A DNA stretch of 24,000 nucleotides from an uncultured Methanosarcinales archaeon (GCA_964617195.1 CAZTVK010000025.1:1436-25435); one strand, 5' to 3'. Counted from the stretch's first letter, positions 8,817 to 23,902 are shown. The notes: generated by a model not told the origin, from the sequence alone. Numbers and translations: made by a program.

Positions 8817-10046
8817 ATGGAAAGCTTTATAAACAGTGGAAAGAGAAACAAATCAATGGCGCCAGAACCAAATGAACAAAAAATAGTCATCACGCTAGAC
8901 CAGCTGCTTCTGGGCGTAAGAGAGAAAATCGGAGAGATAAAAGACGGGCTCATTCGAGCAGTCTCAGAAAAAGCATCACGAGGAACCACTGACTTCGGAG
9001 GAAAGGACGCATTTTTGGTAAGAGGATACTTTCCTGCGGATTACCTGCTAAACTCATCAAGCTACGTTCTTAAAACTCTCGAAGATGCAAGACATGATCC
9101 GTTGATAGAGGGACATGATAATTCTGAACTTCGAGGAAAAATAATGCGCCAAATCGAAGAAATAGCAAGAGACGTTTTTACGATACCTAAAGACATGACT
9201 TGGTCTGGCCTAGTTGATTTGAGCGAAAAATCCAGACGCCTCTACAAGGAAATGCTGCCAATAGTTGAGGAAAGCAGGCAGATCGATCACAGAACAGGCC
9301 TCAAAATATCTGACTATCTAACGAACTACTTATTCGAAAGCCTCAAACAATACCTCTCTCAACCCAACAAACACATCTCGATAGTATATCTTGATATGAA
9401 CAACTTCAAACTCTACAACGACATAGTAAAATCACACCAGGCAGACGTTGCAATCCAGCAAACAGCAGCACTCCTGAAGCAACTTCCAGAAGACGTTGTT
9501 GTAACAAGAAAAAACGACAAGAGAGGAGACGAATTCATGCTATTCATGCACAAAGATTATGACGGAGCAAGCAGAATCATGCATAAATTGTTTATTCCAC
9601 AATTTGACGAAAAACTTCCAGCCATGATCACGGCAGCAATGGAAAATAGTACGCAAAAATACGACGCCAACTTTGACAAGATGGGAGGAAAACTATCATT
9701 TGCAATAGGAATAAGTTCAACCTTGCTGCAGGACGGAACAACAATATTTGCAAGAGCAAGAAAAAGATTCGGGCAAACAGACGAAGAACTTTCAAGAGAA
9801 CTAGATTACTTCAATTCATGCGAGTCAGAAAAATGGCATGATAAATATGATAGTTTAAGTCCGGAAGTAAGAAAAAAAATACTCACGGCGCTCAAAGGAA
9901 CCTTGCAAGATGAAGCGGAAGCTGCGGCGCACTGGGCAAAAAACCTGTCAAAAGATAGGCATGAAAAAGAATTCTATGAAAAAACGGTTCTGCGGGCATA
10001 TGATCCAAAACTACCAGAATCAACTTATATTTACGTAGGACGATAA
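8817..10046 (+). CDS. GGDEF-like nucleotide cyclase domain protein with unknown N-terminal domain
   Basis: DHRTGL (DxLTGL), IVYLDMNNFKLYND (DxDxFKxxND), KSHQAD (in place of GHxxGD), KRGDEFMLFM (GGDEF position reads RGDEF), LSFAIGIS, and AEAAAHWAKNLSKDR (AD.ALY.AK..GRN). All are in the canonical order. Confidence 0.8.
   Translation: MESFINSGKRNKSMAPEPNEQKIVITLDQLLLGVREKIGEIKDGLIRAVSEKASRGTTDFGGKDAFLVRGYFPADYLLNSSSYVLKTLEDARHDPLIEGHDNSELRGKIMRQIEEIARDVFTIPKDMTWSGLVDLSEKSRRLYKEMLPIVEESRQIDHRTGLKISDYLTNYLFESLKQYLSQPNKHISIVYLDMNNFKLYNDIVKSHQADVAIQQTAALLKQLPEDVVVTRKNDKRGDEFMLFMHKDYDGASRIMHKLFIPQFDEKLPAMITAAMENSTQKYDANFDKMGGKLSFAIGISSTLLQDGTTIFARARKRFGQTDEELSRELDYFNSCESEKWHDKYDSLSPEVRKKILTALKGTLQDEAEAAAHWAKNLSKDRHEKEFYEKTVLRAYDPKLPESTYIYVGR
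9285..9971 (+). other. GGDEF-like (palm) domain within the 409-aa protein
   Basis: Covers about aa 157-385. The motifs listed for the CDS are all present. An insertion of about 60 aa lies between the SxGIS strand and the C-terminal A.AK helix. Confidence 0.65.
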
Positions 10047-12160: not shown

Positions 12161-13249
12161 ATGGTAGAGATAGACATAGGACACAATTATGACCAGCGCG
12201 TAATCGATGGAATGTACGTAAAGTCCTCACGCTATTTCCGCCGCACACTAGACTCAGGGAAACCAAAAGTACTGGGACTTGAGAATTTGCTTTCAATTCC
12301 GCAAGACGCTTCTGCAGTTTTGGTATCAACACACAAAAGCCACTTGGATTATGTTGTTGTTCCCTGGGTGCTTAGAGAACACCAAACACCAAAAGGAGAA
12401 AGACCGCTAGCCATCGCAGCAGGCGACAACCTCTTCAAGCGAATCGCAAAATGGAATTTTGACAAATTTTTACGAACGTGCGGCGGGTACAAAATAATCA
12501 GGAAACCCCAGCCCGGCAAAAAAATAGCAACCACGGGAACACAACTCAACTACACTGCTGAACGCATGGAAGCAGCAGACTGGTTCCTAATATTTCCAGA
12601 ATGCGGCAGATCATACACAGGCGAAGTAATGCCATTTGACCCGGCAGCACTCGGAATATTCCAAAGAGCAGAAAAAAGATCTGAAAGAAAAGTCGTATAT
12701 GTTCCCACAACCATAGGATATGAACGCGTGCCAGAAGACAGATGGTTTACGGCATTCGCAAATTACAAATCATCAGTATCACACCTCAAAAAACTTCTTT
12801 ACTACGCTCTAGACTGGCCGCTAATCTTTGCACAACAGTACATCGGAATCTGGAACAAACCAATCGGGCAAATCGTCATCCGCTTCGGCACACCACTAAC
12901 CAGCTCGGAAGGAAACACACCTCTGAGCAAGGAAGATTTTGCGGCGCGCATGGAAAACGCCTGCAAATCAATAGTTCCTGCATTCTCAACAAACATTTTA
13001 GCCACAGCGCTCCTGCAATCTGAAAGTCCGGCACAACTAGGCCACAAAATTGCCGAAGTATACGATCATCTAAACCAGCGCGGAGTCATCGCGAATCCAG
13101 ACGAAAGAGATCACATACTGCGCGCAGCACGATTCCTAAGCGCTCCACTGAGAAATTTCTTCCATAACGGCGGCGCTTACGGAATAGGACGGATGGACAT
13201 CATCGAATATTACCGCAACTGCACCGCACACCATTTCAAGTCAACATGA
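12161..13249 (+). CDS. PlsB/GPAT-family glycerol-3-phosphate (or DHAP) acyltransferase-like protein
   Basis: All four GPAT/LPLAT blocks are in order: STHKSHLDYVVV (HxxxxD), CGGYKIIRK, IFPECGRSYTGE and VYVPTTIGYERV. These compare with E. coli PlsB HRSHMDY / GAFFIRR / FVEGGRSRTG / IGYEHV as I recall them. The ATG at 12161 is preceded by AGGTGGGTGG, and the track ATG at 12128 sits inside a TATA-like CTTTTAAATG. Confidence 0.82.
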   Translation: MVEIDIGHNYDQRVIDGMYVKSSRYFRRTLDSGKPKVLGLENLLSIPQDASAVLVSTHKSHLDYVVVPWVLREHQTPKGERPLAIAAGDNLFKRIAKWNFDKFLRTCGGYKIIRKPQPGKKIATTGTQLNYTAERMEAADWFLIFPECGRSYTGEVMPFDPAALGIFQRAEKRSERKVVYVPTTIGYERVPEDRWFTAFANYKSSVSHLKKLLYYALDWPLIFAQQYIGIWNKPIGQIVIRFGTPLTSSEGNTPLSKEDFAARMENACKSIVPAFSTNILATALLQSESPAQLGHKIAEVYDHLNQRGVIANPDERDHILRAARFLSAPLRNFFHNGGAYGIGRMDIIEYYRNCTAHHFKST

Positions 13250-15166
13250 AATGCTCTCTTCAGAATAAGCTCTCAGCAGCAAAACCAAATCACCAATTTC
13301 TAAAAGACCGTTCTTATTCATATCCAATTCAACAGGACAGAACGAAGTCAGTTCTTCAACATTACATTGCAAGTTCTCGCCAAAAAAGCCAGAGATCAAC
13401 AACACCAAATCACCAATATCAAACTCCTCATTATTGTTTCTGTCAAGATTCATAATGCAAGTCTGAGATGTGAAAGAAACAGAATCCTCGGCTGAAACAC
13501 TCTGCGAGTCCTCAGCTGAGAAAATAACAGTATGCTCTCCAGGAGCAAAAGGAACAGTAATCTGATTGCCAACGCCCAAGACAGCATCCTCTTCTTTCCA
13601 AGTGCCTGACAATTCACCATCCTCAACATCATCAGCAGAACCCTCAAGCGTAACAGGAGACTTAGCAGACCCACCAGGAGAAGTTATGCTCGCGCTCGGA
13701 GGATTATTACCAGCAGGAGGTGTAGGAACAGGAGACGGACTTGGTTCAGGTGATGGAGACGGCTCAGGAGAAGGCGATGGACTTGGAGATGGTTCGGGTG
13801 TAGGTATTGGACTCGGAGACGGACTTGGCTCAGGTGACGGGCTTGGAGATGGTTCAGGGGAAGGAGACGGAGGCGTCAATGATTGAACAGCAGCCAAAGC
13901 ATCAATGCGCTTGAAACCACTTATTGGAACGCCCGTATCCTGCATGATTTGTTTCATCTGATCAGGCGACAACTGCAAATTTAGTAATTCAGCATATTGG
14001 CTCAACAACGCAACCAAACCAGAAACATGAGGAGTTGACTGAGAAGTGCCAGATAGAGAACCATACAAATTATTCGCCTTTGTACTAATGATAGACGCGC
14101 CAGGAGCAAGAACATCAAGCAACGGCCCCCTGTTAGAAAAGCCCGCCATCAAATCACTCTTTGTAGTCGCGCCAACAGAAATAGAATTCGGACTGCAACC
14201 AGGATAACTCACGCCATTCGCATAACCATTATTGCCAGAAGCAAACACGGACACGATTCCCGCGTTATACGCGGCATCGATTGCTACATCAAAATAAGTC
14301 GGACACTGCGCCTGAGTCTGATAGTTTCCGCCATCACCAATACTGCCAGAAATCGCAACAATATCAAACTGGTCCTTCACCTGCAAACAATAATCAATAC
14401 CAGCAAAAATATCAGCCAAATTACAACCAGCATTGCAAACTTTCACAGCGACAATATTAACTCCAGGCGCAACACCCTTGTAAGCTGGACCATTTGCCGC
14501 AATAATTCCAGAAACGTGCGTTCCATGACTGACAGAATGAGTATCAGTAGCTAAAACATCAGTCGCCTGCCCATTAGGACAACAATTCGGATAACAAAAA
14601 CACTTCTGGTTTACAATACGATTCTGAAAATCAACATGAGGAGAAATTCCGGTATCAACCACGCAAACACTCCTGCCACTGCCATCAATATTTTGCGTTT
14701 GCCAAACATCATCAGCATTAATCAAAGGAACACTATCAAGTAAAGTAAGCTCGAACTGAAAATTTGGATAAACAGCCTCAACTAACGGATGAGATTCCAA
14801 CTCGGCAATGCCATCAGAAGTAGCCTCAACAACCATCGCAGGAACAATATCCAAAAACCTCTCAGCTTCAACATCAGGAGAATGCTCGATTCCAAACAAA
14901 CGCTCGAAAAAAGAAGGACTATTCACGTCATCCAAAACTTCCTGCTGCGCAATAGCAGTAGAAACTTTCAACTCATCCAAAGAAGACGATTCTTCACCAA
15001 AAGATAACGCGCCGGTTATCGCACTGCTAGACTGAGCTTTCAAAACAACCACAACAGTTTGCGGAAGCTCACTCGTCACTCCACCAGTAATATTCGGCTT
15101 ACCCCAAATGAGGAAAGAGAACAGAATCAACATTCCAAAAGCCAAAGCAATACGAACACGTTTCAT
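13241..15166 (-). CDS. secreted subtilisin-like serine protease (S8) with Pro/Ser linker, Ig-like domain and C-terminal dockerin
   Basis: Catalytic triad contexts VCVVDTGI (Asp), HGTHVSGIIAANG (His) and GTSQSTPHVSGLVALL (Ser). It has an N-terminal signal/anchor MKRVRIALAFGMLILFSFLIWG. The track start at 15175 is GTG, and the ATG is at 15166. Confidence 0.93.
   Translation of the reverse strand: MKRVRIALAFGMLILFSFLIWGKPNITGGVTSELPQTVVVVLKAQSSSAITGALSFGEESSSLDELKVSTAIAQQEVLDDVNSPSFFERLFGIEHSPDVEAERFLDIVPAMVVEATSDGIAELESHPLVEAVYPNFQFELTLLDSVPLINADDVWQTQNIDGSGRSVCVVDTGISPHVDFQNRIVNQKCFCYPNCCPNGQATDVLATDTHSVSHGTHVSGIIAANGPAYKGVAPGVNIVAVKVCNAGCNLADIFAGIDYCLQVKDQFDIVAISGSIGDGGNYQTQAQCPTYFDVAIDAAYNAGIVSVFASGNNGYANGVSYPGCSPNSISVGATTKSDLMAGFSNRGPLLDVLAPGASIISTKANNLYGSLSGTSQSTPHVSGLVALLSQYAELLNLQLSPDQMKQIMQDTGVPISGFKRIDALAAVQSLTPPSPSPEPSPSPSPEPSPSPSPIPTPEPSPSPSPSPEPSPSPEPSPSPVPTPPAGNNPPSASITSPGGSAKSPVTLEGSADDVEDGELSGTWKEEDAVLGVGNQITVPFAPGEHTVIFSAEDSQSVSAEDSVSFTSQTCIMNLDRNNNEEFDIGDLVLLISGFFGENLQCNVEELTSFCPVELDMNKNGLLEIGDLVLLLRAYSEESISC
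13244..13456 (-). other. dockerin module (two EF-hand-like Ca-binding repeats)
   Basis: DRNNNEEFDIGDLVLLISGFF and DMNKNGLLEIGDLVLLLRAY both fit the dockerin pattern D-x-N-x-(D/N)-x(3)-(D/E)-x-x-D plus a hydrophobic helix. They are separated by about 22 aa. Confidence 0.8.
13710..13874 (-). repeat. coding tandem repeat: (P-S-P-S-P-E)n-type Pro/Ser-rich linker
   Basis: PPSPSPEPSPSPSPEPSPSPSPIPTPEPSPSPSPSPEPSPSPEPSPSPVPTPP. The DNA shows imperfect 18/36-nt periodicity (ggagacggacttggYtcaggtgaY recurs). Confidence 0.85.
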
Positions 15167-15252
15167 AAAGATCACTCTTTTCTATATCTGAAACACGCAC
15201 TGCTTAAATGCTTTTCGAGAAGTATAATATAACAAAACGCGAATGCAACACC

Positions 15253-16364: not shown

Positions 16365-18647
16365 ATGAGTCGAAAACAAATTTCTACAATATTTACAGCT
16401 ATACTATTATTGCTCAGTATGATTCCAGCTGTTATACCACACGGTATAATACTCGACCAAGGCACCCAAACAGCAGCACTCGTAGGAGACGTATTCGCAA
16501 TCGTTGATGAAGAAATATACGTACAATACCTAGGAGACGTGAATGCACGAATACACTACATATTCTACGACGATGAATGTGTAGAAGCCTCAAATGACGT
16601 AATAGACGTCACACCCTTACAAATAGTCCAAATCCCAGAACCAGTAGGTGAAGACAGAAAACTCGTAGTATTAGTAGAAGACACAACAGGAACAAGCCTT
16701 CTCAACCAGCCGCTCGCAGGAACAGTCTATGTCAACGGCAGAACAGCAGTCAAAAACATACCAGGACTCACAGCAACAAGCAACATCCAAGGTTCAACAA
16801 TATCAGCATCAGGAACCTTTAACGCAGACGGAGAAAGCTATGACGTATTCCCGCTAAACTTCATCCATTTGCCATTCCTAACAAACGGATCAAACTCGCC
16901 AAGCGTATTCAACAGCCTAGCGATAAACGTGTTCGACGCAACACCGCAACAAATAGGAACAATAGTATTCAATGATGCAGAAGACCCAGCGTCAAAAATA
17001 CTAAACGACGCGCTCTGCGCAGGACTTACAAACATTGCAATACCAGACCTGTTGTTCACAGACATCGGAGGATCAGGAATACAACAAGGAATCCCACCAG
17101 GAGTCCCTATTACTGACGCAGGAGTAGGAGCGATAATTTCGGACAGAACAGACGGAAGACTGCTAGTAGAATCAATTTTCTCTGACGGAGAAGACGCAGA
17201 CGCGCTATCAAACGTGTTCTACTTTGGAGACGGAGAATCAGCCTCTCTGTCATTCCTAACACTACCAGAACTACCAGGATCAGTGCCGCAAGGAATATTC
17301 ACGGGCAAAAACGAAAACTACCAAAACCCACGGCTTACAAGCGCACTGGCAAGCATAGGAATGCAAAAACCAATCGAGCCAGAAGGTCTAAACAACAACC
17401 AAGAACCATTGCCACCAAGCAACTTCAACGTAGACACAGTGTTCGCATTCTTCAACAACGGACCAGCAAGAACAGCAAAAGCAAGATTCGACTTCATATC
17501 ACTGGATCCAAACACATTCAATGAATGCAACCACAAAGACTTCAGCATAGAATTCACAGAAAGCGATGTTGAATACTTCCGAGTCAGCCAATTACTCGGA
17601 GTAAACTTACTGCCAGGAGACTCGCCAATAATCGGAGTCCTTACAGTATGGGACCCAGAAAAAGGAGAAACACTCGCAGGATACAGATGGGACGTCATAA
17701 TGGAAACACAACCAGCATGCAACGACGGAGTAGACAATGACAATGATGGAACAACTGATTTGGGAGACATTGACTGCATTGACGCAACAGACGACAGCGA
17801 AGATGACGCTCAGACCTTGACAGAAAGAGTAGACGAAATAAACGCAGTGCTAGACCAAGAAGTAATGCTGACACTAAACGCGAACTTCGAAAACGGAATC
17901 GCAAGCTTTGAAGCAGCAGAACACGCAACAACATACGTTCCAAGCCTCAACGTCTTCGACCCAGACGATTTCAACCTAGTGTACGTGAACTGGGACGCGC
18001 TTGACGACCCAGCAGCACTAGACCAAGTCTTAGACTTCCAAATAACAGACCAGTCAGAAAACACGAAATCAATACGAATACCAACAACAGAATGCATAAC
18101 ACTGCTTGACAAGCAAAGCTTCCCAGGACTATCAGACGGAAGCACGTTCGGAACAAACCCTGACGTTCTAAGCTACACAGGCAAGTTCGACCAGCCAAAC
18201 AGAGGACTCGCAGCATTCCTCTTATACAACAGAAACGGAATCTTCGCAACAGAAAACATAGATGCCATAGCAGACCTGGCATTCACCAACAACCACCACG
18301 ACGGAGAAATCTTTGCGGACATAAACGTCATGCCAGGCTCAGTCCCAGGACCAGGAGGAACATTCGTTGTTGAAGTAGGAATTACGCCATCAGTAACGCA
18401 AAACAATGTTAGCGTCACAGCAAGATGGTTTGCAGCAGTACCAGACGGAGCAGATCCGAGCAAGTTAGTCAGAGGACCGCTCATCTGCGAAGAAGAAGTA
18501 AACCATGACTTGGCAGCAGGAGAAGCCTTTGCTATCAAAGTTGCATGCCCGATTGACCCGCTAAGCATCGACGCCTTCCTAGAAGTTGAAAGCAGCCCAT
18601 TATCAGCAATGGGCCGGGTGTCGATATTCGTACCAAAAACAACATAG
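16365..18647 (+). CDS. large acidic secreted protein, unknown fold, with a Cys-flanked DNDNDG Ca-loop motif
   Basis: Signal peptide MSRKQISTIFTAILLLLSMIPAVIP, 760 aa, and very D/E/N/T-rich with few K/R. Contains CNDGVDNDNDGTTDLGDIDC at nt 17718-17776. No C-terminal anchor. Confidence 0.8.
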   Translation: MSRKQISTIFTAILLLLSMIPAVIPHGIILDQGTQTAALVGDVFAIVDEEIYVQYLGDVNARIHYIFYDDECVEASNDVIDVTPLQIVQIPEPVGEDRKLVVLVEDTTGTSLLNQPLAGTVYVNGRTAVKNIPGLTATSNIQGSTISASGTFNADGESYDVFPLNFIHLPFLTNGSNSPSVFNSLAINVFDATPQQIGTIVFNDAEDPASKILNDALCAGLTNIAIPDLLFTDIGGSGIQQGIPPGVPITDAGVGAIISDRTDGRLLVESIFSDGEDADALSNVFYFGDGESASLSFLTLPELPGSVPQGIFTGKNENYQNPRLTSALASIGMQKPIEPEGLNNNQEPLPPSNFNVDTVFAFFNNGPARTAKARFDFISLDPNTFNECNHKDFSIEFTESDVEYFRVSQLLGVNLLPGDSPIIGVLTVWDPEKGETLAGYRWDVIMETQPACNDGVDNDNDGTTDLGDIDCIDATDDSEDDAQTLTERVDEINAVLDQEVMLTLNANFENGIASFEAAEHATTYVPSLNVFDPDDFNLVYVNWDALDDPAALDQVLDFQITDQSENTKSIRIPTTECITLLDKQSFPGLSDGSTFGTNPDVLSYTGKFDQPNRGLAAFLLYNRNGIFATENIDAIADLAFTNNHHDGEIFADINVMPGSVPGPGGTFVVEVGITPSVTQNNVSVTARWFAAVPDGADPSKLVRGPLICEEEVNHDLAAGEAFAIKVACPIDPLSIDAFLEVESSPLSAMGRVSIFVPKTT

Positions 18648-18657
18648 GAGGGACTGA

Positions 18658-19707
18658 ATGAAGCCCTTTTTCTTTTTTCTTATCTTTTTGTTAGTCATAG
18701 GCAGCGCAAGCGCCACATTTCCAATAACGATAAACGGAAAAACAGTACCGAATTCAGCAAACACAGCAGACAAAACAGAAGCAGACCAAGCACAACTATT
18801 CTACCAAGGAAGAGTACAAGGATTCACACTCCCAACAGACCCTGACATTTCAAGCATAACAAGAGGAAGCATAGATTTCAAAAGAAACGGCAAAGCACCA
18901 CCAATCTCACAATTCTTCTTCTTTCCAATCGCAGCACCACTAAATGAGCCAACACAACAATCAGAAGGCCCAACCGGAGCGATAACTTACACAGTAGACG
19001 AAGGACCAGAAAAAGGACCAATAGTAGCGATGATACTCCTGATAACAATCATCACAGTATTCTTCGTGATAAGAATACAAGGAACCAAAATAAAAATAAT
19101 CCTTGCAGTAATCATACTCACAGCAGCATTATTTACCAGCGTAAAACTAACCAACACGCCAACAGCACTCCTAGTGCAAGAATATCCAGAATCCGTGCCG
19201 CAAGAAATAGCGCCAGCATCAGCGCACATCAACAACGCATTTACATTAACGTGGACGCATGGAGGACCAGTAACATTTTTCCCAGAAGGCGGAGCACCAG
19301 AATGCTCCGACGGAATAGACAATACAGACTTCGAAGACCTATTAGCAGACTGCGCAGACCCAGGATGCCATACAGACGGAAACGAAAGCAACCCGGGAAG
19401 CTGCGATCCAACAGACGACCTAGAACAAGACATGCTCGAATACGACCAAGCACCAGTCGTAGACAACCAAATAGACGTGTACGACACAGTCAACTGGGTA
19501 CAATACTTCAACGCAGACTCCAGCGTACTAGTCCACTGCACAGACACTGCCTGCAGCAACAACCCAGCAACAAACTGCGTAGGAGACGTCGACCCAAGCG
19601 GAGACTCAGCACTAACGGCAGCAGACCAAACATTCCTACAAACAAAACAACTAGCAGACACGGATAGCAGAACAGTAGCCGGAGGCTCAATCTGCTTCAA
19701 CACATGA
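18658..19707 (+). CDS. membrane protein with signal peptide, two central TM helices and a Cys-rich acidic C-terminal ectodomain
   Basis: GGAGG lies 6 nt upstream of the ATG. N-terminus is MKPFFFFLIFLLVIGSASA. TM helices are IVAMILLITIITVFFVI and IILAVIILTAALFTSV. Contains CSDGIDNTDFEDLLADCADPGC (nt 19303-19368) and a dockerin-like half-site DPSGDSALTAADQTFLQ. Confidence 0.75.
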   Translation: MKPFFFFLIFLLVIGSASATFPITINGKTVPNSANTADKTEADQAQLFYQGRVQGFTLPTDPDISSITRGSIDFKRNGKAPPISQFFFFPIAAPLNEPTQQSEGPTGAITYTVDEGPEKGPIVAMILLITIITVFFVIRIQGTKIKIILAVIILTAALFTSVKLTNTPTALLVQEYPESVPQEIAPASAHINNAFTLTWTHGGPVTFFPEGGAPECSDGIDNTDFEDLLADCADPGCHTDGNESNPGSCDPTDDLEQDMLEYDQAPVVDNQIDVYDTVNWVQYFNADSSVLVHCTDTACSNNPATNCVGDVDPSGDSALTAADQTFLQTKQLADTDSRTVAGGSICFNT

Positions 19708-22019
19708 AAACAATAACACTACTACTGATGCTGGCCCTAATCCTGCCTAGTGTCAGCGCCGCAATCACATTCTCACTAGCGCCAAGCACACAAGACGCAA
19801 ACCCAGGAGACACAGTAACAGTAGGACTATGGGCAAACAACGACCAAGCAATCTGGGGAACATCAGTCAAAGTAGACTTCAGCACAATCACTTACAGTTC
19901 AAGCACGTCAGGAACAGCAATCTCAGGAAGCCTCAATGGAGTATCACAAAATACGCCAACAAGAATCACACCATACGCGGTATTCGCAGGCAACACGCCA
20001 GGAATACCAGCAGGAAACAACAAATTGTTTGATTTGAAATTCACAATACCGCAAAACACGCAACCAGGACAATACCAGCTAACCCTAACACAACCAACAG
20101 CAAGCGACCAGAACGGAAATCCAGTGCAAGCGAGCTACGCAGGACCAGCAACAATAACACTACCAGGCCAACAGCCAGAGCCAACACCAGGAGAAACAGA
20201 GCTCTACCTCTCAGAAGTTTACGGACACATTGAAGAAATAGTGGACATACCAATATGCGTCACAAACACCCAGCCAGGAAAAACGCTCAAAAGCCTCAGC
20301 ATAAAAATCACAAACGACCAAAACATAGTCAGACCAACAGAAGTAGTCATAACACAAGGAAACGGAAACTACGAAGTACAGCCGGGAAGCACACAACTCA
20401 CAATTAACAACCTAAACATCCAAAACGCAGACTGCGAACAAGGAAGCGGAGCATATGTAGCATACCTACACTACCACCTACGAGCATTAGGAGTCAGCCC
20501 ATTACACTTCCAAAGCGCAAGCGCCACAGACCAAACAGCACAACCATTCAGCATACAAGCACTCGAAGCAGAAGACGGACAAATCACAGTAGGAACACCG
20601 CAAGTAACGAAACACTGCACGCCAAACCTCGGAATCATAGCCAAAGACCAAGCAGTCACGATCACATACAAAATATCAAACCCTGGAGAACCAACAACAA
20701 TATCAGACAACATCGGAGGAGTCTACAACGAAGACCTGTTTGACGACACAAACTTCAACCCAACAGTGCCACCAACAAACCTCCAAGCAGGAAGCACGCT
20801 CACGCACAGTTATTCCGGAGGCTCAGGCAAAATCGAAGTCGTCCAAACAGAAAGCCCACTGCCATTCCTAACCGGACCAGGAACGTTCAACATCTACTCA
20901 ATAATATACGATTCAATAGGAAGCATCCCAGTAGGAACGTACACTTTCAACTTCAACCCTCCACCACCACCAGCACTAGAAGTCAGCGACGAGTTCAGCA
21001 ACGACATGACAGCAGGCAAAGTCAGCTGCCAAGTTGAAGTCATCGAACAATGCAACGAAGACAGCGATTGCAATGACGGACAAGCATGCAATGGACAAGA
21101 AACCTGCGATGAAGGAGACTGCGTCCCAGGAACACCCCCAGACTGCAACGACGACAACCAATGCACCAATGACTTCTGCCAAGATCCAGGCGGATGCCAA
21201 CACACCCAAATACCAAACTGCGGCGGAGGACCAGGAGGAAAATCAGGCGGAGGAGGCACAAGCGGAGGCGGACAACAAACAGCATATGTCTGCGCGCAAT
21301 GCAATAACTCAGCATCCCCAGAATACGACAAGTGCTGCGGAATAAACCAAGACAACGCAGACAAATTCTGCAAAAAACCCACAGCATACAAACAATTCTG
21401 CGTATTATTCGGGCAATCAAAACCACCAGCAATAGAATTACCAGCCCAAAGAACAATCCCAGTACAACCAGAAGTGCAAACATCACAAGACACAACAGAA
21501 AGAAAAATCGAGCCACCAAAACAACACCTTATGGGAAAAGCAATTTCACAAGGAGAAACACAATCAGCCAAAGGACTAATGCCATGGATAATCGGAACAC
21601 TATTAGCCGTACTGCTTGTCATATTCGCAACTGCAGTAATGATAAGGCGCAGACCAGAACAAACTGAACAACAAGAATTACCAATACCAATCGGAATACG
21701 AACAGAAGAGCCAGAGCCACGTCAAGAGAGAATCAAAGAATTGACACGCGAAGAAATAGAATCAAAAATAAACAAAATAGCTCCAGAAGAAACACCTGAA
21801 ATCAAGGCAGAGCCGGCAATAATGAAAAAACCGGCAATTGACAAAAAACCAATTGCGTTGAAAAGACTGGCAGCAGTGAAACAACCAGAAAAGCCAAAAG
21901 CGCCAGCACAAAAAATATTCTACAAGCCAGTAACTCCAAAACCAATACAAGAAGTACCTCTAAACAAATACGAAGCAGAAGTCAGAAAGAAATTGGCAAA
22001 AGCAAGAAAGAAAAGATAA
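19704..22019 (+). CDS. membrane-anchored scaffoldin-like protein: two cohesin-like domains, Ig/CARDB-like domain, Cys-rich module, TM anchor, K/P/E-rich cytoplasmic tail
   Basis: The start overlaps the upstream stop (ATGA). Signal peptide is MKTITLLLMLALILPSVSA. Cohesin hallmarks are ANPGDTVTVGLWANNDQAIWGTSVKVDFSTITY and NKLFDLKFTIPQNTQPGQYQLTL. Cys-rich module is CNEDSDCNDGQACNGQETCDEGDCVPG...C, and the TM anchor is WIIGTLLAVLLVIFATAVMIRRR. Confidence 0.85.
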   Translation: MKTITLLLMLALILPSVSAAITFSLAPSTQDANPGDTVTVGLWANNDQAIWGTSVKVDFSTITYSSSTSGTAISGSLNGVSQNTPTRITPYAVFAGNTPGIPAGNNKLFDLKFTIPQNTQPGQYQLTLTQPTASDQNGNPVQASYAGPATITLPGQQPEPTPGETELYLSEVYGHIEEIVDIPICVTNTQPGKTLKSLSIKITNDQNIVRPTEVVITQGNGNYEVQPGSTQLTINNLNIQNADCEQGSGAYVAYLHYHLRALGVSPLHFQSASATDQTAQPFSIQALEAEDGQITVGTPQVTKHCTPNLGIIAKDQAVTITYKISNPGEPTTISDNIGGVYNEDLFDDTNFNPTVPPTNLQAGSTLTHSYSGGSGKIEVVQTESPLPFLTGPGTFNIYSIIYDSIGSIPVGTYTFNFNPPPPPALEVSDEFSNDMTAGKVSCQVEVIEQCNEDSDCNDGQACNGQETCDEGDCVPGTPPDCNDDNQCTNDFCQDPGGCQHTQIPNCGGGPGGKSGGGGTSGGGQQTAYVCAQCNNSASPEYDKCCGINQDNADKFCKKPTAYKQFCVLFGQSKPPAIELPAQRTIPVQPEVQTSQDTTERKIEPPKQHLMGKAISQGETQSAKGLMPWIIGTLLAVLLVIFATAVMIRRRPEQTEQQELPIPIGIRTEEPEPRQERIKELTREEIESKINKIAPEETPEIKAEPAIMKKPAIDKKPIALKRLAAVKQPEKPKAPAQKIFYKPVTPKPIQEVPLNKYEAEVRKKLAKARKKR
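19761..20162 (+). other. cohesin-like domain 1
   Basis: About aa 20-153, about 134 aa. The pattern PGDTVTV ... (I)WGTSVKVDF ... LFDLKFTI..PGQY.L.L ... G.ATITL aligns by eye to type-I cohesins (PGDTV.IPV ... GI...DF...YD ... F..I.F.V ... G.Y.I). Confidence 0.7.
20196..20591 (+). other. cohesin-like domain 2 (more divergent)
   Basis: About aa 165-296: LYLSEVYGHIEEIVDIPICVTNTQPGKTLKSLSIKITNDQNIVRP ... YVAYLHYHLRALGVSPLHF ... DGQITV. Same strand order and length as domain 1. Confidence 0.5.
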
Positions 22020-22037
22020 AGAAGATTCACTATAATT

Positions 22038-22337
22038 CTAACGAACCAATGCAGTTTGAACCATAGGAACGCCAACAAGAGAGTTACCTTGCTTGCACAA
22101 ACTCAACTGCGTGCCATACTCATTAGTGTACACGTGAATAGGATCTAACGGCTCAAGACCAGCATAAACGCAAGCCTCATCAGGAGCCAACTGAATTCTC
22201 TGAGGACCATAATACCAACGTCCGCCACCAGCAGCATAATACTGGCCAGTAAGCGTATCGCGAAGCTGAACAGTCAAACCGCCAATAGCAACAACTGCTA
22301 TAAAACCCAACAATACAAGACCGAGTTTATTCATCAT
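22038..22337 (-). CDS. small signal-anchored/secreted protein (99 aa), unknown function
   Basis: MMNKLGLVLLGFIAVVAIGGLTV is a hydrophobic N-terminus. Has two Cys and an ATG start. No family recognised. Confidence 0.55.
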   Translation of the reverse strand: MMNKLGLVLLGFIAVVAIGGLTVQLRDTLTGQYYAAGGGRWYYGPQRIQLAPDEACVYAGLEPLDPIHVYTNEYGTQLSLCKQGNSLVGVPMVQTALVR

Positions 22338-22798: not shown

Positions 22799-23902
22799 AT
22801 GTTAGTTCATAAGGCTTATCGGAAATTTTCAAAAGAACAAAAGTTAGTTCTCCTGACAAAAGAATACAACTTATCGGAGAAAGAAATTCTACGTATCAGA
22901 TCAATAGAAAATCCGAAGAAGAGGCTACTAGAAGCAGCCAAACTTCAATTTGAATGTTTGGGCGATATACACAATGATATTACGGCGTGGATTGCAGGTT
23001 ATTCCCAAGAAACATCAGTTAGGAGCGTTTTCGGAACGGCATTGGAATTAAGAAAGAATTTTGTCAAACTTCCAGAGAACATATCTTCATATTCCTGGAT
23101 GGATATAAAACGAAGAGTGAAAATTCCAACATGGTCGGAAGATTTAGCTGAAGAAACAGGAGTTCATTTAGGAGACGGATCGCTTCAAATAAACAAGTAT
23201 GGAAAATGGCAGAACTATGCGTACACGATCGATGGTCACTTAATCGACGACATGGCCTACTATGATTTCCACGTAATTCCATTAATTCAAAGATTGTACA
23301 ATCTTACTCCTAGAAAAAGAATCAATAAGGATCGTAATTCCTGTCAACTAGTAATAAAATCAAAAGCCGTTAGCATCTTCAAAAAGGAAATTCTAAAATT
23401 ACCCGTGGGAAATAAAATAGGTGCTAAAATCCCTAAGGAAATAATTGAAGATGATGTTTTTTCTAAAAAGTTTGTATGCGGGATGATCGATACTGATTTC
23501 ACAGTTACCAAAGATTTGCAAATTAGAGGCAGTTTAGTAAGTTTGAATGTAATTAAGGGAATGTCAGAGATTCTTGATAAACTGAATATGAATCATTATA
23601 TTCGAATAAAAGACGGTGTGGGCTACATAGTCATAAACAAGCCAGCATCGATCGAGCTACTGGAAGAAATTAAAAATCCTAAACATACTTCGAAATATCT
23701 TCTCTGGCAACGTTTTCATAAATACATTCCGTTTACATCAACAGTTGAACGATTGGCGGTTCTTGAAAACATTGTGCCTTTCGAAGATCTACTGAGATTG
23801 AGCGAAAAAAGAAAAAAAGCCCAGGCAAGCGCCCGGGCCTACGCCCCCGGTGAGAATTTCGGTGCTTTTAAAGCACACTCGAACTCACGACCTACTGATT
23901 AA
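22799..23902 (+). CDS. free-standing double-motif LAGLIDADG homing-endonuclease-like protein
   Basis: Two LAGLIDADG-type motifs about 100 aa apart: LAEETGVHLGDGSLQINKYG and KKFVCGMIDTDFTVTKD. An N-terminal extension of about 120 aa precedes them. The gene looks AT-richer and uses more T-ending codons than its neighbours. Its last 61 nt overlap tRNA-Asn on the opposite strand. Confidence 0.78.
   Translation: MLVHKAYRKFSKEQKLVLLTKEYNLSEKEILRIRSIENPKKRLLEAAKLQFECLGDIHNDITAWIAGYSQETSVRSVFGTALELRKNFVKLPENISSYSWMDIKRRVKIPTWSEDLAEETGVHLGDGSLQINKYGKWQNYAYTIDGHLIDDMAYYDFHVIPLIQRLYNLTPRKRINKDRNSCQLVIKSKAVSIFKKEILKLPVGNKIGAKIPKEIIEDDVFSKKFVCGMIDTDFTVTKDLQIRGSLVSLNVIKGMSEILDKLNMNHYIRIKDGVGYIVINKPASIELLEEIKNPKHTSKYLLWQRFHKYIPFTSTVERLAVLENIVPFEDLLRLSEKRKKAQASARAYAPGENFGAFKAHSNSRPTD

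Follow-up and report, generated by a model that had tools for sequence, protein, structure and literature searches.

Docking between cohesin and dockerin modules is best understood in bacterial cellulosomes, and its purpose outside them is largely unknown. Here we analysed a 24,000-nt stretch of DNA from a Woesearchaeota-like DPANN archaeon (GCA_964617195.1, CAZTVK010000025.1:1436-25435; hereafter the window, with positions counted from its first letter) and a gene on its plus strand that encodes a 771-aa protein with cohesin and cohesin-like modules (hereafter the cohesin protein). Judged from its sequence and predicted structure, this protein would act as a cell-surface anchoring scaffold for a neighbouring secreted protease of the S8 subtilase family, a reading to which we give slightly better than even chances.

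In Clostridium thermocellum, the dockerin of an S8 protease (double-dockerin dDoc_0689) attaches it to ScaD, a cell-bound scaffoldin (Chen et al. 2024, summarised in PMC12484212). In archaea, binding has been demonstrated for non-cellulosomal cohesin–dockerin pairs (PMC9012536 and references therein), and the same source describes such cohesins and dockerins in Archaeoglobus fulgidus and in the multi-cohesin proteins of the anaerobic methanotrophic archaea (ANME) ANME-1 and ANME-2 (Chadwick et al. 2022, PMC9012536, citing Peer 2009, Bayer 1999 and Haimovitz 2008).

The present locus resembles the ScaD system in having a cohesin on a cell-attached protein and an S8 protease with a putative Ca-binding dockerin-type module at its C-terminus, and surface retention of the protease is the purpose that we likewise propose. 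It differs from ScaD in its anchor, a transmembrane (TM) helix with a long cytoplasmic tail instead of an S-layer homology (SLH) or sortase anchor, in its plug, a divergent EF-hand pair that fails Dockerin_1, and in its DPANN host. Unlike the cellulosomal anchoring scaffoldins, it resides in a genome without carbohydrate-active enzymes (CAZymes); the cohesin protein has no match to a carbohydrate-binding module (CBM) or glycoside hydrolase (GH), the genome has no Pfam-level Dockerin_1, and the only candidate cargo is a protease. With the A. fulgidus 2xdh and ANME cohesins it shares an archaeal host, a lack of relation to cellulose and the cohesin fold (Foldseek TMt 0.80 to 2xdh), and, as in ANME, there are several cohesin or cohesin-like modules per protein. 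It nevertheless belongs to a different family, found in a few Woesearchaeota-like lineages, and joins its cohesins to two Cys-rich modules, one of Dicty_CTDC type and one private to the family with 6 Cys, as well as to a TM anchor and a tail with a conserved motif; its candidate cargo is a protease, whereas the dockerin-bearers of ANME are commonly solute-binding proteins. The best structural match for the first two modules in tandem is the type II cohesin dyad of Acetivibrio cellulolyticus ScaA (3l8q), at ~10% sequence identity and with a relative domain orientation that is not comparable (root-mean-square deviation, rmsd, ~13 Å); ScaA also differs in being a bacterial adaptor scaffoldin with its own dockerin.

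Cohesin and cohesin-like modules of the 771-aa protein

Translation of the window gave a 771-aa open reading frame (ORF) at 19704..22019 (+), whose ATG overlaps the stop codon of an upstream gene for a 349-aa protein (ATGA). The 1.09-Mb genome contains one copy of the gene and no paralogue of any of its seven segments. Compared with two orthologues of 89% and 76% identity, the whole gene showed a dN/dS of 0.21, indicating purifying selection. Relatives of the protein comprise 7 full-length and further shorter ones, and the alignments used in this work were shallow (3–14 sequences). The N-terminal part of the protein contains three modules, D1–D3:

19761..20168 (+): D1 cohesin module, residues 20–155, recognised by Pfam, PDB profile, AlphaFold2 (AF2) and Foldseek.
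20193..20600 (+): D2 divergent cohesin-like module, residues 164–299, recognised by Pfam matches of orthologues, hhalign to D1 and AF2/Foldseek.
20601..21050 (+): D3 putative third cohesin-like module, residues 300–449, recognised by hhalign to D1, in long-form family members only.

D1 is a bona fide cohesin by hidden Markov model (HMM) and by fold. Its residues 28–142 scored 25.6 bits against Pfam PF00963 (cut-off 24.1) and 30.7 bits in a six-frame scan of the genome, and the family profile matched the Ruminococcus flavefaciens cohesin 5n5p in a PDB profile search (E 8.6e-9). The AF2 model of D1 (predicted local distance difference test, pLDDT, ~85) has the nine-stranded β-sandwich (jelly-roll) of the cohesin fold, and Foldseek aligned it with CaCohA2, ScaB Coh6 and A. 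fulgidus 2xdh at TMt 0.77–0.83 and rmsd 2.1–2.5 Å.

D2 appears to be a divergent cohesin, a view supported by both profile and fold. The window copy has no Pfam match; Cohesin was matched by 4 of 13 orthologous D2 segments (best E 2.9e-5), and hhalign aligned D1 with D2 at E 0.0015, surpassing each of 20 column shuffles. D2 was modelled at pLDDT ~75, and the top Foldseek match of the whole model was the dyad 3l8q, which covers D1 and D2 jointly (351 aligned columns, E 2.5e-12). The two cohesin-like domains proposed by a first-pass annotation of this DNA were thus recovered, the second in divergent form.

The same annotation had read the following region (residues ~305–420) as an Ig/CARDB-like domain followed by a PPPPP linker, and neither description was supported. 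No Ig or CARDB family was matched in Pfam at E<=1 in 7 orthologous segments, and no PDB sequence matched at E<=10. The region aligned instead to the D1 cohesin profile, collinearly over 115 columns (hhalign probability 78.6%, E 1.7e-5), with a score of 36.3 against a maximum of 18.3 over 30 shuffles. D3, which carries AVTITYKISNPGEPTT at residue 317, is therefore probably a third cohesin-like module; Cohesin was matched in Pfam by 1 of its 7 orthologous segments, at E 0.079. In the alignment, D3 "GPGTFNIYSIIY...PVGTYTFNF-PPPPP-ALEVSDEFSNDMTAG" pairs with D1 "AGNNKLFDLKFTIP...PGQYQLTL---TASDQNGNPVQAS". This pairing spans PPPPP (residue 419; 20958-20972), which therefore lies inside the D3 module.

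A dockerin-like end on the neighbouring S8 subtilase

The candidate cargo is encoded 4.5 kb from the cohesin gene:

13241..15175 (−): secreted S8 subtilase (Pfam Peptidase_S8, 2.8e-45), which also has a Pro/Ser stalk, an Ig-like domain and, at its C-terminus, a dockerin-like module.
13244..13477 (−): last 78 aa of the subtilase, with two Ca loops of EF-hand type that each lead into a hydrophobic helix, DRNNNEEFDIGDLVLL / DMNKNGLLEIGDLVLL, bracketed by Cys.

The source genome contains exactly one Pfam-level cohesin protein and exactly one protein with a double loop-helix, the subtilase, whose end is the only double dockerin-type loop-helix motif among the 6549 ORFs of the genome. The C-terminal module is conserved in seven orthologues. 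Look-ups seeded by the subtilase C-terminus alone found only S8 proteins, and both of the two examined adjoin a cohesin operon.

Subtilase orthologues at L026:7233-9845, L015:3-2270 and L022:10001-12046 were compared with the window copy (handles beginning with L denote loci of relatives). The number of Ig-like (Big_7-type) spacers between the catalytic domain and the dockerin-like end varies, with one in the window, two in P0160 and 3–4 in the short-form clade defined below. The C-terminal module is retained wherever the contig includes the C-terminus, despite this variation.

Gene neighbourhood and two forms of the locus

The cohesin gene occurs in a long and a short form that differ in their modules and in the genes that accompany them:

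Long form (window, L013, L021, L022/L009, L004, L010, L011, L017, L018): D1-D2-D3-Cys knot; gene order (760-aa), 349-aa, cohesin.
Short form (L015, L023, L026; one clade with 81–90% mutual identity): D1-D2 only; no 760-aa and no 349-aa gene.
16365..18647 (+): 760-aa secreted acidic protein with one acidic double-disulfide repeat, the operon's first gene in most long-form loci.
18658..19707 (+): co-operonic 349-aa membrane protein, candidate partner, with a C-terminal dockerin-like loop-helix D-P-[SN]-x-D-x-x-[VI]-[NT]-x-x-D-[ML]-x-x-L.
22038..22337 (−): 99-aa membrane protein (N-terminal TM segment, ectodomain with 2 Cys), its gene convergent with the cohesin gene.

The subtilase gene lies divergently upstream, near the cohesin gene, in six of the seven lineages in which upstream DNA is visible. 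The two genes are close in the window, L013, L021, L022, L011 and the short-form clade, where they directly adjoin. L011 and the short forms have other genes, or none, in between, yet the S8, cohesin and 99-aa genes are still close together. Wherever a locus has sequence at that position, the 99-aa gene adjoins the cohesin gene (44–98% identity), and its product is often better conserved than the cohesin protein. A search of 150 other genomes of the order found none, and the 99-aa protein has no family match; its role may be that of a subunit, or it may act on the protease as chaperone or inhibitor.

Every long-form locus with sequence at that position has the 349-aa gene directly upstream of the cohesin gene, none of the three short-form loci has it, and the insertion of D3 and the Cys knot co-occurs with this gene across loci. 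This co-variation of D3 and the Cys knot with the 349-aa and 760-aa genes suggests that D3 serves these two partners and D1-D2 the protease. The 349-aa protein has a predicted signal peptide, two internal TM segments and a Cys-rich end (C-terminal ~90 aa). Its canonical loop-helix is conserved, e.g., as DPSNDGLVTVADMITL in L010, and a degenerate copy (VDNQIDVYDxVNW) precedes it. The L011 version of the protein lacks the N-terminal ectodomain (224 aa); the dockerin-like end is kept.

With D1-D2 as the query, 150 other genomes of the order were sampled: one gave a weak match, and 149, among them the only one from the same family, gave none. As far as these genomes indicate, the cohesin family is restricted to a few Woesearchaeota-like lineages.

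Some further features of these loci were recorded. L004, from the one lineage in which no subtilase lies upstream, has instead (L004:2-3117, minus strand) a pair of paralogous genes for Cys-rich lipoprotein-like products of ~490 and 520 aa, in which CxxxxDCxxGxxC-type units are repeated. A LAGLIDADG_3-type gene lies downstream of the cohesin/99-aa pair in the window (22799-23902, +) and at L004:9224-9862 and L017:3710-4363 (44% and 89% identity); given its presence in these two relatives, it is an old resident of the position and not a recent arrival in the source genome only. N-x-S/T sequons are strongly depleted in the cohesin protein and most of its orthologues (0–2 observed vs 4–8.6 expected, shuffle P 0.0005–0.07) as well as in the subtilase and the 760-aa protein of the window, and two AglB/STT3 genes are present in the genome despite this depletion. 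The L011-lineage orthologue shows the opposite, with 25 sequons observed vs 11.3 expected.

Topology and spacer of the ectodomain

A Kyte-Doolittle scan of the cohesin protein found two hydrophobic segments only, residues 1–19 and ~626–647, the latter followed by R648–R650, and all 20 Cys of the protein fall between the two. This heuristic reading fits a type I topology (N-out/C-in) with the ectodomain outside. Besides the cohesin-like modules, the signal peptide, ectodomain and membrane anchor comprise the following elements:

19704..19760 (+): signal peptide, residues 1–19, MK, a hydrophobic core and SVSA/A, by Kyte-Doolittle and conserved among orthologues.
21051..21221 (+): Cys-rich module, residues 450–506, 10 Cys in 57 aa, with Dicty_CTDC-type disulfide repeats.
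21222..21290 (+): Gly-rich linker, residues 507–529, its Gly run conserved in all family members.
21291..21401 (+): family-specific 6-Cys juxtamembrane module, residues 530–566, CxxC...CCG...FCxxPxxYxxxC.
21402..21578 (+): P/E/Q-rich stalk, residues 567–625, by composition, with pLDDT < 50 and the highest dN/dS (0.32–0.46).
21579..21653 (+): TM helix, residues 626–647, and RRR, residues 648–650, with a Kyte-Doolittle maximum of 2.85 and an AF2 helix at 626–648.

The first-pass annotation had described a membrane-anchored double-cohesin protein with a signal peptide, one TM helix followed by RRR and a domain order unusual for a scaffoldin. Our analysis supports an outward-facing, membrane-anchored multi-cohesin protein with a non-cellulosomal domain order. 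The two outcomes that it had named as telling against it, a cohesin part inside the cell and cohesin domains that fail HMM and structure comparison, were not found. Sorting of the PGF-CTERM/archaeosortase type was considered for the C-terminus, where there is no PGF motif, the tail is 124 aa long and NCBIfam gave no sorting-signal match.

The Cys-rich module appears to belong to the widespread Dicty_CTDC repeat (Pfam PF00526). In the window protein it scored 23.5 bits, below the 27-bit cut-off; its close orthologues P0002 and P0003 have a precomputed PF00526 match. Residues 450–506 were matched by >1000 proteins in phmmer, relatives hold 4–68 copies, and four of four sampled relatives pass PF00526 with up to 184 bits. 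Like those proteins, the cohesin protein aligns to the repeat over these residues; it differs in having a single unit of ~2 repeats, as one spacer or knot. The presence of such a module had been foreseen, with a miscount (9 Cys in 58 aa) and with a suggested resemblance to myxobacterial repeats that gave way to the Dicty_CTDC relationship. A scan of NCBIfam at E<=1 for a Myxococcus-type Cys-rich repeat gave only a spurious PACE-CTERM match, and this identity was rejected. The Gly-rich linker and second Cys cluster of the same annotation are also present, the latter being the 6-Cys module. It is kept in most long and short forms, is degenerate or absent in a few (e.g., P0007), and has no match elsewhere in the source genome.

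Taken as a scaffold, the protein would work as follows. After cleavage of the signal peptide, the cohesin sockets D1 and D2, together with the putative D3 in the long form, would be displayed outside the cell on a spacer made of the Dicty_CTDC disulfide module, the Gly linker, the 6-Cys module and the P/E/Q-rich stalk, with the one TM helix as the anchor. The cohesins would bind Ca-dependent dockerin-like EF-hand modules. Foremost among the candidate plugs is the double loop-helix that ends the subtilase; in long-form loci, the 349-aa membrane protein with its single C-terminal loop-helix offers a second. We infer both the dockerin identity of these partners and the binding itself. Retention of the subtilase at the surface would lead to extracellular proteolysis and peptide scavenging near the cell.

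Protease anchoring weighed against adhesion

The observations behind protease anchoring include, besides the cohesin modules, the topology and the precedents cited above, the presence in the source genome of one cohesin protein and one protein with the double loop-helix, the proximity of the S8 and cohesin genes, the ATGA overlap, and the co-occurrence of D3 with the 349-aa gene. Several results weigh against it. The subtilase end is below threshold in Pfam, with a best EF-hand_1 match of 4e-4 and a Dockerin_1 match of 0.043 in 1 of 6 orthologues; compared with the PDB, it gave troponin C at E 0.02 and dockerins at E 0.3–2.7; and its AF2 model is of low confidence (pLDDT 32–45 in the loop-helix part), with no Foldseek match at E<=0.001. 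The genome as a whole has no Pfam-level dockerin, the best Dockerin_1 score being 16.6 bits vs a cut-off of 22.9. For the second candidate plug, the PDB profile of the 349-aa loop was not significant (dockerin 4fl4_A, E 0.82), and the third socket, D3, was not folded confidently by AF2 (pLDDT < 50, from a 7-sequence alignment). The genomic context is also less telling than a count of loci implies. The L004/5/6 lineage has other genes upstream instead of S8, and the synteny of several loci extends far beyond the cluster; the ligase, helicase and FtsZ genes of the window, for example, are also present in L021. Part of the S8–cohesin adjacency is therefore inherited gene order, which is weaker evidence than the locus count. 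The co-variation of D3 and the Cys knot with the genes for the 349-aa and 760-aa proteins probably goes back to one evolutionary event.

These points leave some weight to an adhesin or host-attachment protein, in which the cohesin-fold and Dicty_CTDC modules would be generic binding or spacer elements that contact a host, a partner microbe or a substrate, and the protease would be unrelated or only co-regulated. We consider this unlikely, at a level that still deserves attention. A DPANN archaeon with a 1.09-Mb genome and no Pfam-level dockerin is a plausible setting for such a protein; the patchy distribution of the family in the order is typical of fast-turnover surface and interaction proteins, Dicty_CTDC repeats are found in huge secreted proteins with up to 68 copies, and a protein with an FG-GAP propeller, an adhesion-type module, neighbours the cohesin cluster. 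Three results speak against it, however: D1 qualifies as a cohesin by HMM as well as by fold, the genome's one double EF-hand/dockerin-like module belongs to the protease next door and is conserved along with that protein, and the S8, cohesin and 99-aa genes stay close where other genes have been lost. We keep the anchoring of the protease as the preferred explanation.

Cytoplasmic tail

Behind the TM helix the cohesin protein continues into a tail with a conserved end:

21645..22016 (+): cytoplasmic tail, residues 648–771, 124 aa, K/E/P-rich, Cys-free, net +12, predicted disordered.
21936..22016 (+): C-terminal basic amphipathic helix (PLNKYEAEVRKKLAKARKKR), a conserved motif and an AF2 helix at 755–770.

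A long K/P/E-rich tail with sequence repeats had been described. The length and the basic composition were confirmed; the repeats were not, since no pair of 8-mers reaches 5/8 identity and Tandem Repeats Finder (TRF) found nothing at the DNA level, leaving compositional bias only. The tail has no Pfam match. Across 19 family members its length ranges from 6 to 124 aa. The motif Y..[IV][RK][KR][KR]L[AK]K is present in the last ~20 residues of 15 of these 19, at ~31–90% overall identity and with linkers of 39 to 124 aa; 3–4 members, including those with tails of 6, 16 and 27 aa, have almost no tail or lack the motif. The dN/dS values were 0.30–0.36 in the linker, which also has indels, and 0.17–0.29 in the last 27 residues, and the tail end is therefore constrained while the tether is not.

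In the simplest reading, the tail end would be a lipid-facing, positive-inside helix. We infer that the tail serves as a disordered positive linker whose terminal basic helix most likely lies on the acidic inner face of the membrane or binds a cytoplasmic partner. The latter, as the first-pass annotation had suggested, would make the protein a transmembrane coupling device, in which the helix binds the cytoskeleton, the nucleoid, the ribosome or a membrane machine and so positions or reports the surface complex. Such a role is compatible with a scaffold, and we assign it a low probability. The persistence of the motif among linkers of very different length, the purifying selection on the tail (dN/dS 0.17–0.36) and the modelled terminal helix speak for it. 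Against these stand the members without the motif, the lack of a Pfam match, the absence of the motif from every other protein of the source genome, and the fact that a basic amphipathic helix near the membrane is more simply a lipid-binding, positive-inside anchor. A partner of the endosomal sorting complex required for transport (ESCRT) or MIT type, considered on account of a loose likeness of the motif to MIT-interacting motifs, was excluded, as the genome, scored 100% complete, has no MIT and no Snf7.

An integrin-like bidirectional scaffold would combine both ideas: the tail helix would dock an intracellular partner and couple the extracellular cohesin–protease complex and three co-inherited membrane or secreted partners to cytoplasmic machinery. 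We regard this as improbable. In a lesser variant, each cohesin-like module would have its own plug (the S8, 349-aa and 760-aa proteins), making a four-protein surface machine.

Source organism and other window genes

The source genome (1.09 Mb, 26 contigs) belongs to a Woesearchaeota-like DPANN archaeon. Other genes of the window are archaeal (an ATP-dependent DNA ligase, a helicase matching the Pfam archaeal-helicase domain 4, and FtsZ), and the NCBI name of the source of one orthologue is Candidatus Woesearchaeota. Contigs L013 (CAZCCU010000005.1) and L015 (CAZDUA010000022.1) bear the title 'uncultured Methanosarcinales archaeon'. The gene cluster of L013 is that of the Woesearchaeota-like window, with proteins 62–87% identical, and L015 has its short-form version; the taxonomic label of these third-party annotation (TPA) bins is probably wrong. 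A 409-aa ORF at 8817-10046 (+) of the window matched the GGDEF (diguanylate cyclase) domain in Pfam (E 6.2e-8), in an archaeal genome.

Discussion

The data are best explained by a cell-surface scaffold that would anchor the neighbouring subtilase. A structural, S-layer-like subunit of the cell envelope, with the β-sandwiches forming a lattice and the 760-aa, 349-aa and 99-aa proteins as co-subunits, is highly improbable: the conserved multi-gene cluster of secreted and membrane proteins, the TM-anchored stalk and the significantly non-random N-glycosylation sequons, as if the surface were functionally constrained, would suit it, but a core envelope protein should be widespread, whereas this protein goes unmatched in 149 of the 150 sampled genomes of its order, the one same-family genome among them; no S-layer family was matched in Pfam or NCBIfam; and sequon depletion is the opposite of what is typical of archaeal S-layer glycoproteins, though the two AglB/STT3 genes are present.

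What is new here is the architecture, in which two or three cohesin-like modules share one protein with Dicty_CTDC-type and private 6-Cys modules, a TM anchor and a conserved motif in the tail, together with the split into long and short forms with co-varying partner genes and the degree of divergence of the candidate plug. The locus offers a minimal tractable system in a 1.09-Mb archaeal genome, with one scaffold of two or three sockets, one protease with a candidate plug and a few co-inherited partners, and the conserved cytoplasmic tail motif poses a small separate question. If the binding is true, the long and short forms would provide a natural comparison for mapping socket to plug, and very divergent cohesin/dockerin-like pairs would be among those missed by current HMMs. 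Ultra-small archaea would then hold secreted proteases on their own surface, which would bear on peptide scavenging by DPANN archaea or on their action at the host surface.

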